Shown here: in pieces, positions 31,988 to 47,627 of the stretch | How positions within the stretch are numbered: the stretch's first letter is position 1 | Layout of the letters: the number at the start of each line of letters is the position of its first letter | From: a virus | Strand: one strand, 5' to 3' | Virus record (IMG/VR): IMGVR_UViG_3300032307_000797 | DNA: 64,000 bases | Made by a program: the position numbers and the translations under genes | Notes under the pieces: generated by a model | What the model was told of the DNA's origin: nothing | Databases searched by the model: none | Seen by the model: the letters and a program-made list of their open reading frames with translations, nothing else

Positions 31988-31995
31988 TATAAATA
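31988..31995 (-). promoter_or_regulatory. Putative late promoter motif TATTTATA for tail tube
   Basis: 40 nt upstream of ATG 31947. Confidence 0.6.
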
Positions 31996-35124: not shown

Positions 35125-35132
35125 TATAAATA
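35125..35132 (-). promoter_or_regulatory. Putative late promoter motif (GA)TATTTATA for sheath
   Basis: 36 nt upstream of ATG 35088. Confidence 0.6.
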
Positions 35133-40149: not shown

Positions 40150-40157
40150 TATTTATA
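40150..40157 (+). promoter_or_regulatory. Late motif TATTTATA nested in a divergent host-type promoter (40138-40168, minus)
   Basis: 12 nt upstream of ATG 40170; the minus strand reads TTGTTT-N17-TATATTAG. Confidence 0.55.
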
Positions 40158-44237: not shown

Positions 44238-44269
44238 CAAATATAAGTAAAAAAAATTGAATTTACAAA
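44238..44269 (-). promoter_or_regulatory. Bacteroidota-type promoter TTTG-N20-TATATTTG for polB
   Basis: Exact fit to the Bacteroides/Flavobacterium -33 TTTG / -7 TAnnTTTG consensus. Confidence 0.7.
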
Positions 44270-44877
44270 ACGGGAGGATAATAATTTTCTTTTAGGTCAT
44301 GTTCACTAAAATTCCATCTTTTAATCAGACCTAATTGATACCCATTGAAAAACAATTCTAAATGTTTGTGAAATGCAAACGCGAATGAGTCCACCCCTGA
44401 TTTTACTTGTAGGTGTTTTTCTTGTTCTAAACCTCCTAAATAATCGTCAAATATCATCACACCACCATCTTTTAAACAATAAAATGCATTAACCGCATCC
44501 TCCAAGACATGACACGACATATGACTCCCATCAATATAAACAAAATCAAGAAATTCTTTTGTTTCTCCTTTATGAGTAAACGTTTTAAATGCGTCTCTTG
44601 ATTCCCCATGAAACAATGTGATGTTTTCGTAAGGTTCTATATTTGATAAGAGATATTCAGATTGATTTATATCCATTAGATATAGGTGAGAACCTTCTAA
44701 ACTACAAAGTCGTTCTCTTATGTAAACAGAAGACGCTCCGTGATAACTCCCAATCTCCAAACAGGTATTTGGTTTATCAAAAAGAAATGATAATGATTTA
44801 TCCCAATTATCTATATGGTCTTTAAACCACATACGTCCATTTTCGGGATAGTTAAAATGAGATGGATATTCAAACAT
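44263..44877 (-). CDS. Class I SAM-dependent methyltransferase (Methyltransf_24-like)
   Basis: LEIGSYHGAS, DFVYIDGSH, LKDGGVMIFDDY. Confidence 0.88.
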   Translation of the reverse strand: MFEYPSHFNYPENGRMWFKDHIDNWDKSLSFLFDKPNTCLEIGSYHGASSVYIRERLCSLEGSHLYLMDINQSEYLLSNIEPYENITLFHGESRDAFKTFTHKGETKEFLDFVYIDGSHMSCHVLEDAVNAFYCLKDGGVMIFDDYLGGLEQEKHLQVKSGVDSFAFAFHKHLELFFNGYQLGLIKRWNFSEHDLKENYYPPVL

Positions 44878-44916: not shown

Positions 44917-45285
44917 TTAGTAAATGGTAATGAATAACTTCTCCCTAATTGGTAGGATAAGTTTTGTTGTTGGATTTAAGTTTGTATCGAGGAATTGAAC
45001 GGTAATTTTTGCTTCGTATTTCCCAACATTTGAAGTTTGAGCTTCAGTAAACCTATGAACAATATAATATTCATCAGTTGTTTGGTCATATTTTTTATTA
45101 CGGGTAGTAATATTACATTCAGAACTTAAAATTTCAGGTTCCCCATCTTCAATTCTGAACATATCTAAAGTGATATCACAATTCTCTAACATGTCGTTAA
45201 ATGACGATTTATCATTCTTACCGTCATCAATTAATCTCATTTTTAGAATTGGTTCACTTGCCCCTTGTCGTATAAAAAATTCCAT
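44917..45285 (-). CDS. BppU-like baseplate/fibre-attachment domain protein
   Basis: FFIRQG...F-x4-T-x2-VGKYEAKITV...LP pattern; late motif at 45290-45297. Confidence 0.55.
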   Translation of the reverse strand: MEFFIRQGASEPILKMRLIDDGKNDKSSFNDMLENCDITLDMFRIEDGEPEILSSECNITTRNKKYDQTTDEYYIVHRFTEAQTSNVGKYEAKITVQFLDTNLNPTTKLILPIREKLFITIY

Positions 45286-45297
45286 ATTTTATAAATA

Positions 45298-47349
45298 TTA
45301 GTAACAGATATATTGAATTCCCGATGAATTATAGAAGTTGATGGTACGTCCTCCCGTTGACGAATCATATGTGGTTCCATTATCCCATCCATCCTCAGTT
45401 GCATATGTCACATCAAATGTATAGCTATCCACTCCGCCACCTAAGTTCGCGGTTTTACCTGTTATTGTATATGCGACCCAACCACTATTCATGTCCGGTT
45501 CATTATGAATTCTTATGATATCACCGGATGATAATGAACTAAAAAACGTACCCATATTTTGTAATGTAAAAGAAGTAACCGTCAAAGAAACTTTAGTAAC
45601 ATTTGCTGCCGTTGAATTATTACGTGACCATCCATAACCACCCATACTTGGTTGAGATAATGATATTGGATTTGTTAACCAAGTTTGATTTTGAGTGTTT
45701 ACTCCAAAACAACCACTTAAAGTAGGTGTACTTGTTAAAGTTGGTGTCGTCGTTAATGTTGGTGTAATAGTAGGTGTACTTGTTAATGTTGATGTACTCG
45801 TTAATGTTGGTGTATTTGTTGCCGTTAACGTTGGTGTTGGCGTTGGGGTATTACAATTTATTGTAACAGATTTTGCTAATATAGTTGAAGGGTTATTTGT
45901 ATCCCTTATTACCATCCAATATGTTCCTGTATTGGAACCAATCGCAACACTTAATCCACCCGAAGGCATTTCGGTCCAGTTTGTGTTGTTAAGTGCGTCG
46001 TTTTCAGACGCATAATTACCTAACCCAATTTCATATTGTCCTGAGCCACCCGTGGCACCACTTGCTATGGTATAATTGGGTGATACACAATTATATGTTA
46101 TACTAAAATCAAGTGGTGATAGTGTAGTTGTTAGTGTTGGGGTAACTTCCGGTGTTCCTGTTGGTGTTGGGGTCGATGTTGGTGTTCTTGTTAATGTGGG
46201 TGTGGGTGTTGGTGTTTGTGTAGGTACATTATCCAAAGTTACTCTTAATATATCCGACGTGGTAAATCCTGTTGTAAAATCATATGATATATTTGTCGGT
46301 ACAGATGCTGTCGGAGATGTATATAAAAGAACATCATTTCTATATATGTTAATACTATAAGAACCACTACCCCCAACAATAACTGCAATAGACTGACCGC
46401 TCACAATACCTGAGTGATTAGCATATCCTGTTTGACCTTGAGTTAATGGAAAACTAAAATTCCAACTACTACTAAAACTACTTGTATATAATTGCCAAGA
46501 AACTCCAACAGTATTATTATTTTCTAAAACGATATTATATGTTTGAGAAGTTGTTAATGTTGGTGTGGCAACAGGTTCAGATGTACTCGTAGGGGTACTT
46601 GTTAATGTTGGTGTCGGAGTTGGTGTTGGACAATCATCGACAGAAGCAATAATACCATTAACAACATATAATAAATTAAATGTATCTAATTTTATATAAT
46701 AACCGTTTGTTCCCGCATAATATGTGGTTAAGGTATCATCATTATATAGTTTATCACCAACCTCAGGTATATAATTTGAAAAATATGCACTGGTACCTGC
46801 CGTAGAATAACATGTTGCCAATTGTAAACATGACAACGAGTTACATGCTAAAGTTTGGTTATTTACAAAGCTACCTTGTGTGTTTGTTGAAAAACTTAAA
46901 TTGGCAAAATAAGCTTGCTCCCCTGAAGAACTAGTAGTATTTGTCAACGTAGGTGTTGGTGTACTCGTTAAAGTTGGTGTTTCGGTTAACGTAGGTGTAC
47001 TAGTTGAAGTTACTGTCGGTGTTGGTGTCGGAGTTTCTTCCGATGTTGTGGTTAATGTTGGAGTACTTGTTAATGTTGGTGTCGGAGTTGGGGTAATCAC
47101 ATAATGAGTGATGTAAACCTCACACTCTGAAAATGAATTGTATACAATAATTCTATCGGTGTCATTTGGCACTGTAACGGCGATACCTGTTCCAGTGGTT
47201 ATACTACTAAGAGCAATCAATGTTGCATCATCAGTGGTGCCATATAATTTGGCAAATTGATATTCTGAGGACCCCGTCGTTGTATAAAATATATCGTATG
47301 GTCCTACCGAATCCCCCTGAGTGATTTTAACATTGAAAAATTTTGACAC
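45298..47349 (-). CDS. Modular Pro/Thr-rich virion fibre/adhesin-like protein (683 aa)
   Basis: Four TPTPTPTLT linkers separating Cys-bracketed beta modules; GTG start. Confidence 0.7.
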   Translation of the reverse strand: MSKFFNVKITQGDSVGPYDIFYTTTGSSEYQFAKLYGTTDDATLIALSSITTGTGIAVTVPNDTDRIIVYNSFSECEVYITHYVITPTPTPTLTSTPTLTTTSEETPTPTPTVTSTSTPTLTETPTLTSTPTPTLTNTTSSSGEQAYFANLSFSTNTQGSFVNNQTLACNSLSCLQLATCYSTAGTSAYFSNYIPEVGDKLYNDDTLTTYYAGTNGYYIKLDTFNLLYVVNGIIASVDDCPTPTPTPTLTSTPTSTSEPVATPTLTTSQTYNIVLENNNTVGVSWQLYTSSFSSSWNFSFPLTQGQTGYANHSGIVSGQSIAVIVGGSGSYSINIYRNDVLLYTSPTASVPTNISYDFTTGFTTSDILRVTLDNVPTQTPTPTPTLTRTPTSTPTPTGTPEVTPTLTTTLSPLDFSITYNCVSPNYTIASGATGGSGQYEIGLGNYASENDALNNTNWTEMPSGGLSVAIGSNTGTYWMVIRDTNNPSTILAKSVTINCNTPTPTPTLTATNTPTLTSTSTLTSTPTITPTLTTTPTLTSTPTLSGCFGVNTQNQTWLTNPISLSQPSMGGYGWSRNNSTAANVTKVSLTVTSFTLQNMGTFFSSLSSGDIIRIHNEPDMNSGWVAYTITGKTANLGGGVDSYTFDVTYATEDGWDNGTTYDSSTGGRTINFYNSSGIQYICY

Positions 47350-47370: not shown

Positions 47371-47613
47371 TTATTTAATTTTTAATATAAATTCGTTACC
47401 GGATAAAAACGGTAATACATCCCCATCCTTTAATTCATCTGACATATAATAAAATTCTTCTTTTACTATTTCAAACGGTAATTTTAATTCATCCTTAATA
47501 ACATTTTTAACGTGCTCAACCGTTAACGGTTCATTAGTATGAAATGTCTTTTGAAATCTTTTTACTCTCTCTTTGTTCTTGATGATATTAACATCAACAT
47601 CTATTGTTTTCAT
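47371..47613 (-). CDS. Ubiquitin-like (beta-grasp) protein without C-terminal GG (80 aa)
   Basis: TVEHVKNVIKDELKLP and LKDGDVL align with ubiquitin TIENVKAKIQDKEGIP and LEDGRTL. Confidence 0.55.
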   Translation of the reverse strand: MKTIDVDVNIIKNKERVKRFQKTFHTNEPLTVEHVKNVIKDELKLPFEIVKEEFYYMSDELKDGDVLPFLSGNEFILKIK

Positions 47614-47627
47614 AATTTATATTTTTT

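Follow-up and report, generated by a model that had tools for sequence, protein, structure and literature searches.

A predicted phage beta-grasp protein without a C-terminal glycine, encoded next to a predicted propeller-type protein in uncultured jumbo phages

Gene order at the locus

The window analysed here is the whole 64,000-nucleotide stretch of DNA from virus record IMGVR_UViG_3300032307_000797. Its gene content includes a tail sheath, a tube, a family-B polymerase (PolB), an SNF2-type helicase and a T4 gp13-like neck gene, and its source is an uncultured jumbo myophage of about 310–330 kb without a close cultured relative. The genes and features considered below are as follows.

49810–54345, minus strand: gene for a 1511-aa protein whose C-terminal domain is a ConA-like lectin, at the head of the minus-strand unit, with TATTTATA at -13 (Pfam, PHROG)
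49766–49773, minus strand: promoter-like motif TATTTATA, 31 nt upstream of the start of the 704-aa gene (motif survey of the window)
47628–49742, minus strand: gene for P0054, a 704-aa protein predicted to be all-beta and propeller-type, and the predicted partner of P0001 (AlphaFold2, Foldseek, VIA, synteny, co-fold)
47614–47627, minus strand: 14-nt spacer carrying no promoter-like motif, read as a sign of co-transcription (sequence; recurrent short spacers)
47371–47613, minus strand: gene for P0001, an 80-aa protein with a predicted beta-grasp (ubiquitin) fold, no glycine at its C-terminus and no tail (reading frame, homologues, AlphaFold2, fold matches)
45298–47349, minus strand: gene for a 683-aa modular protein with PT linkers, a lineage-specific insertion (translation with TPTPTP tracts; absent here in most relatives)
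44917–45285, minus strand: gene for P0056, a 122-aa protein whose place downstream of P0001 is conserved in the close clade; a separate TATTTATA precedes it at -12 (tblastn synteny)
54351–54358, 35125–35132, 31988–31995 and 40150–40157: further TATTTATA sites, given as examples (motif survey of the window)

The minus strand at 47371–47613 contains an open reading frame of 80 codons, whose 80-aa translation, P0001, ends in ILKIK; the plus strand across the same interval has many stops. About 50 metagenomic homologue clusters keep this gene, nearly all of them at 80–82 aa. In 40 clusters, on contigs of up to 322 kb, identity to P0001 is 59–93% and the length is exactly 80 aa in all but one, and an exhaustive search added further relatives with identity down to about 33%. 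Differences among relatives fall on codon positions 1, 2 and 3 in the numbers 243, 163 and 365, and thus favour the third position. Given the conservation across clusters, the constant length and this pattern of differences, the 80-codon reading frame is a real gene.

In a tblastn survey of 40 loci, a homologue of P0054 was found directly upstream of the P0001 gene wherever the flanking sequence suffices, and the spacer between the two genes measures 12–32 nt in related loci. The five loci fetched first share the order 704-aa, 80-aa, 122-aa and PolB genes, and in the close clade the start of the 122-aa gene overlaps the stop of the 80-aa gene. Pairing could be followed into three distant lineages with usable flanks. 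In one of them P0046, at 44% identity to P0001, comes after a 683-aa homologue with 39% identity to P0054. P0049 (38% to P0001) is preceded by a 685-aa homologue with 34% identity to P0054, and P0047 (39% to P0001) by a fragment that matches the C-terminus of P0054 with an E-value of 2e-15. In both of the distant loci open to comparison, the gene downstream of the pair differs from the 122-aa gene. Since the pairing holds in the distant loci while the downstream gene changes, the conserved unit is the pair of the 704-aa and 80-aa genes.

The surroundings of this pair are variable. The junction between the 80-aa and 122-aa genes holds other, unrelated genes in two related loci, both encoding beta-rich proteins (L015:4094–5071, 325 aa; L019:1303–2238, 311 aa), and resembles a hot spot at which variable genes, some possibly concerned with host range, are inserted. 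A search of PHROGs with these two inserted genes returned nothing useful, and the variable upstream genes matched only phrog_15511. This module of unknown function is common to the 1511-aa protein, the 683-aa protein and the variable upstream genes of the relatives, which suggests that binding modules have been shuffled among them. A Methyltransf_24 gene (E 1.1e-17) lies at 44263–44877 of the window, between the 122-aa gene and PolB, and is absent from that place in L001 and L004. On one 625-bp contig (L041:1–625), the 80-aa gene is followed by a 73-aa chimera and then by the 122-aa gene. The chimera combines residues 1–41 of the 122-aa protein with the C-terminal 32 residues of the 80-aa protein, the two parts meeting at an ‘FEM’ present in both. 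It could have arisen by tandem duplication at microhomology or be an artefact of assembly.

P0056, the 122-aa protein, has no significant match in Pfam or PDB, and PHROGs returned nothing for it. Judged by language-model features in the ESM Atlas, it is similar (0.94) to a phage cluster with the baseplate domain BppU_N on 12% of its members. Pfam searches with 14 members gave no confirmation of a BppU_N identity, which we therefore set aside as a lead from the Atlas only.

The sequence-only reading had placed the 80-aa gene among tail-fibre genes, and this description holds in part. Large beta-rich neighbours, PT linkers and a ConA-like lectin domain are indeed present, and the 1511-aa protein matches Pfam Laminin_G_3 (E 1.2e-27) and PHROG 8510, annotated ‘virion structural protein’ (E 1.8e-23). 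None of these neighbours is a demonstrated fibre or a proven virion protein, and a polymerase gene lies four genes downstream of the 80-aa gene.

A recurrent promoter-like motif

The motif TATTTATA occurs 14 times in sense orientation in the window, 12 of these within 50 nt upstream of a gene start. Genes preceded by it include those for the sheath, the tube, the gp13-like protein and the 1511-aa, 704-aa and 122-aa proteins, among others, and it is absent before the PolB, helicase and methyltransferase genes of the window. In reverse it closely resembles the T4 late box TATAAATA. Judged by the genes it precedes, TATTTATA is a candidate late promoter.

No copy of TATTTATA precedes the 80-aa gene. 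Because this gene lacks a motif of its own and is separated from the 704-aa gene by 14 nt, the two are probably co-transcribed. From the identity of the genes that carry TATTTATA in front, we infer that the pair belongs to the structural, late class.

Sequence relationships of the 80-aa family

P0001 has no significant match in PHROGs, Pfam or PADLOC, and PADLOC contains no defence-related model that matches it. Searching 50,697 phage records with tblastn detected neither P0001 nor P0054, and the region had no megablast match. Among 185,579 prokaryote species genomes there are zero relatives of the P0001 family, which on this survey is a phage-only family; for the same reason the genomes offer no prophage-based clue to the host. 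One source gives the name ‘barstar’ to one family member, which the evidence does not support, and we set it aside. The long matches that appeared in searches with P0001 (P0044 and P0051–P0053) are repeat or low-complexity artefacts.

We then considered how far the likeness to ubiquitin extends at the sequence level. The identities reported in the sequence-only reading are exact: 7 of 16 and 4 of 7 residues in two motifs, at P0001 residues 31 and 61 against ubiquitin residues 22 and 50, with a spacing compatible with that of ubiquitin. The likeness is local and weak, covering the helix and the following loop. A Smith–Waterman alignment of P0001 with ubiquitin scores 45, against 25.6 ± 4.8 for 2000 shuffles, and 0.45% of the shuffles reach 45; as one hand-picked comparison, this excess is suggestive. 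No ubiquitin-clan model of Pfam is matched above threshold by any of 40 family members, the only ubiquitin-related entry being UCH_UBL1, to which two members show a clearly non-significant likeness (E 0.026). A profile of the family retrieved no ubiquitin from PDB chains at E ≤ 10, and aIF2-alpha, at E 0.35 in the same search, is a chance match. The sequence likeness to ubiquitin is thus marginal.

Predicted fold and C-terminus

To obtain a structural view of P0001, we ran AlphaFold2 with the 40-sequence alignment of the family. The model has a mean pLDDT of 93 and a pTM of 0.81, and follows the order beta-beta-alpha-beta-beta (E2–12, E15–26, H32–43, E49–56 and E73–79). A Foldseek search of the PDB returned ubiquitin and ubiquitin variants with TM scores of 0.55–0.61 and E-values of about 3e-3 to 1e-2; staphylokinase and superantigen-like beta-grasps were also among the matches. 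VIA-align gave a Z of 8.4 to the ubiquitin-like F0 domain of kindlin and of 6–7 to many UBL, UBX, Ras-binding, MoaD and superantigen domains. In BFVD the closest models are uncharacterised phage proteins (TM 0.83, rmsd 1.8 Å). Another uncharacterised phage protein among the predicted models has a TM of 0.76, and a shape search of the ESM Atlas found an 80-aa viral cluster followed by ubiquitin, RnfH and ThiS/MoaD clusters. As the four structure libraries agree, the beta-grasp fold is well supported as a prediction, and P0001 is very probably a ubiquitin-shaped beta-grasp protein. Placing it in ubiquitin proper, as opposed to the wider beta-grasp fold, is not supported by these models. P0001 is a new family with a known fold.

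These models bear out several points of the sequence-only reading. It had proposed AlphaFold and Foldseek as a check for a beta-grasp, and the outcome is a confident beta-grasp whose nearest solved folds are ubiquitin-like domains. The beta strands it placed at both ends of the protein correspond to E2–12 and E73–79. Its statement that a protein ending in ILKIK is not conjugatable by the usual route agrees with the absence of a terminal glycine and of a tail in the model.

The last of these points extends to the whole family. All members end in a hydrophobic residue followed by lysine, and K80 is invariant. In the AlphaFold2 model the final strand, E73–79, runs flush with the C-terminus and leaves neither a glycine nor a flexible tail. 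Neither a ThiF-type E1 (PF00899) nor a Prok-JAB domain (PF14464) is encoded on two contigs from related phages, one of 310,691 bp (93% complete according to CheckV) and one of 245,393 bp.

P0001 can be compared with two groups of beta-grasp proteins. Its predicted fold is common to the conjugatable modifiers ubiquitin, ISG15, BilA and ThiS/MoaD, but these end in Gly or Gly-Gly on a flexible tail, or expose such an end from a precursor, and P0001 does neither. Unlike ubiquitin, P0001 is a stand-alone viral protein without Gly-Gly, and membership of the ubiquitin family is undetectable in its sequence. The UBL, UBX, RBD and FERM-F0 adaptor domains have the same beta-grasp topology and are, together with ubiquitin, its best matches among solved structures. 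UBL, UBX and RBD domains dock non-covalently, and P0001 would do likewise. It differs from both ubiquitin and the UBL adaptors in its much longer beta1–beta2 hairpin, with strands of 11–12 residues.

The propeller-type partner and the predicted complex

P0054 has 181 homologue clusters of very constant length. It has no sequence match in Pfam, PHROG or PDB, Pfam assigns it to neither BNR nor any other propeller family, and the best score of an Atlas feature search, 0.83, is uninformative. AlphaFold2, run with a 54-sequence alignment, produced an all-beta model with a pLDDT of 87.6. Foldseek matched this model to tandem-propeller proteins (EMC1, WD40 pairs of the SSU processome, tricorn and LRP6) with E-values of about 1e-10, and VIA-align gave a Z of 10–11.6 to the propellers of prolyl-oligopeptidase and eIF3b at an rmsd of 8–12 Å. 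On these models P0054 is a predicted all-beta protein whose blades form one or more propellers; given the high rmsd, any blade number and domain layout would be provisional.

The most conserved part of P0054 is its first 70 residues (49533–49742), where column identity is 0.84–0.89 against 0.46–0.72 elsewhere. This segment holds 25 of the 46 invariant positions and has a pLDDT of about 50. It may be a docking or oligomerisation segment, like the anchors of phage fibre-like proteins, and may fold only upon docking or oligomerisation.

To assess whether the paired genes encode interacting proteins, we examined co-folds of P0001 with P0054, made with the alignments of both families. The ipSAE scores were 0.88, 0.89 and 0.89, and the best of three controls scored 0.00. 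The models contain 75–78 contacts, of which at least 83% recur between runs, and the pLDDT of the partner is no lower than 88. In the calibration of the method, 58 of 80 solved complexes and 2 of 110 mismatched pairs attained this mark; the counts apply here only roughly, as the co-fold used our own alignments. The PDB contains no sequence relative of either protein, so that the prediction is unlikely to reproduce a complex already solved. The co-fold score, which is the model's own confidence and not a measurement, supports binding of P0001 to P0054.

On P0001, the predicted interface comprises residues 1–7, the hairpin at 12–21, residues 46–47 and 57–58, the loop 71–73 and K80. The invariant residues S71, G72, N73 and K80 all lie within it. 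On P0054, it is made up of about a dozen short segments within residues 120–565, among them the loops 163–166, 203–208, 232–233, 313–315 and 431–434, an arrangement compatible with a ligand that rests on many blades or lies between two propellers. Conservation was 0.51 at the interface and 0.64 in the remainder of P0054, and 0.79 and 0.81, respectively, for P0001. As the interface is no better conserved than other positions, conservation adds no support for binding.

Discussion

We propose that P0001 is a dedicated, stable, non-covalent subunit of P0054, a reading to which we assign a probability of roughly one half. According to this proposal, the 704-aa and 80-aa genes would be expressed from one late-type transcript, and P0001 would act as a free-standing, non-conjugated beta-grasp subunit that binds the protein encoded just upstream. 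Its N-terminal strand, beta1–beta2 hairpin, Ser71–Gly72–Asn73 loop and Lys80 would sit in a loop-lined groove of P0054. If the two proteins bind in this way in vivo, P0001 would probably stabilise its partner by locking or capping the propeller arrangement, or would supply an adaptor surface. The complex would most likely be present at the virion periphery, as a fibre-like or baseplate-attached unit for receptor binding or decoration. Beta-propeller domains have a precedent in phage host-recognition devices in Gp45 of the Staphylococcus aureus phage phi11 (PMC4901313). P0054 has no sequence relation to Gp45, its propeller body is much larger or tandem, it would have a separate small subunit, and its own location in the virion is only inferred.

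The same gene pair and the same co-fold would be expected if P0001 were a transient assembly chaperone, bound to P0054 only during folding or oligomerisation and absent from the finished particle. Small genes directly 3′ of fibre genes often encode chaperones, and the T4 fibre chaperones gp38 and gp57A are likewise transient and are not known to remain in the finished particle. Lambda gpI has been reported to act in this way as well. The predicted interface, with its 75–78 contacts on a folded propeller surface, is more like that of a stable subunit, and P0001 has no tie to gpI in sequence or architecture, so that we regard a transient role as unlikely. The sequence-only reading had itself offered a beta-grasp fibre assembly factor as an alternative, pointing to the ubiquitin-like nature of lambda gpI. 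That alternative comes close to the subunit reading favoured here, and gpI is indeed ubiquitin-like (PMC1779556), but P0001 is not a homologue of it. gpI (TAPI) shares with P0001 its phage origin and ubiquitin fold, and acts alongside tail-tip or fibre proteins, as P0001 may, instead of serving as an ordinary modifier (PMC1779556). In TAPI the Ubl domain ends in a conserved glycine and is followed by a linker rich in Gly and by a TAPI-C domain, and the neighbours are gpK (JAB plus NlpC/P60) and gpJ (PMC1779556); P0001 is a single domain lacking all of these features, with the propeller protein and the 122-aa protein as neighbours. No member of the P0001 family matches TAPI in Pfam, and neither of the two related phage contigs encodes a Prok-JAB.

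A function independent of the propeller gene, for instance as a replication accessory of PolB, a regulator or a small nucleic-acid binder, appears distinctly improbable. It could draw on the fact that most relatives have the order 704-aa, 80-aa, 122-aa and PolB with nothing between, and beta-grasp domains fill many unrelated roles (PMC1949818). In the window, though, 3.2 kb and three genes separate the 80-aa gene from PolB, which has its own leader and no TATTTATA, while the 80-aa gene follows the 704-aa gene by 14 nt. The distant lineages also keep the pair, and their short contigs show no PolB. We considered too that P0001 might be a detached beta-grasp adhesin module of the InlB-B-repeat/MucBP type, serving as a small carbohydrate- or surface-binding unit. 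A weak phmmer match (E 9e-5) links it to P0050, a 1716-aa secreted metagenomic protein with Flg_new_2 and Por_Secre_tail; P0050 contains about 18 repeats of about 74 aa, in which a local match to the C-terminal half of P0001 (FEI..d.CY.I.DVL.DG) recurs, and a phage MucBP_2 protein is among the Atlas fold matches at TM 0.57. A comparison with the alignment of the P0050 repeats by hhalign gave a probability of only 2.2% (E 0.021, over just 32 columns), and no family member matches the Flg_new or MucBP models of Pfam, which makes such an origin very improbable.

The sequence-only reading had favoured a decoy, in which a non-conjugatable ubiquitin mimic occupies the E1/E2 enzymes of host Bil or CBASS systems and so spares the phage's fibre proteins. 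The ubiquitin-like fold without a C-terminal glycine and the probable expression of the gene together with structural genes would suit this idea. It had also stated correctly that Bil conjugates a Ubl to a phage tail protein, the published target being the central tail fibre of a siphophage (bioRxiv 10.1101/2023.09.04.556158). That target belongs to a different kind of virion, since the window comes from a sheathed myovirus. Bil (BilABCD) and type II CBASS (Cap2/Cap3) do bring ubiquitin-fold proteins or E1/E2 chemistry into the conflict between phage and host, but they are host systems with conjugatable C-termini and enzymes; P0001 has neither, and its predicted ligand is a phage protein. With strand E73–79 at its very end, the P0001 model offers no free tail to thread into an E1 adenylation site, and PADLOC, as noted, holds no model for it. 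The family is confined to one jumbo-phage lineage, and both the conserved pairing and the confident co-fold tie P0001 to the phage propeller protein and not to a host enzyme. The specific evidence points to the adjacent phage protein and none of it to host E1/E2, and inhibition of these enzymes is the least probable of the readings considered here. Very improbable, too, is a variant in which P0001 sits on, or shields, a receptor-binding propeller of the virion and either mimics a host Ubl tag or pre-occupies a modifiable surface. If true, a displayed or shielding P0001 would be a counter-measure to Ubl-conjugation defences that acts on the phage's own protein and not on host enzymes.

Returning to the proposal that P0001 is a subunit of P0054, the two protein families, their obligatory pairing and their predicted complex are undescribed in the libraries and literature searched; the fold itself and non-conjugated adaptors of this kind were already known. 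Phage ubiquitin-fold proteins are now mostly interpreted through bacterial Ubl defences, and the present case would illustrate an older, non-covalent use of the fold. It also advises caution, in that a phage beta-grasp protein without Gly-Gly need not be a decoy. Two unannotated families that are always paired in uncultured jumbo phages thereby gain a testable relationship. If the complex belongs to the host-recognition apparatus, it would represent a new architecture among the receptor-binding devices of phages.
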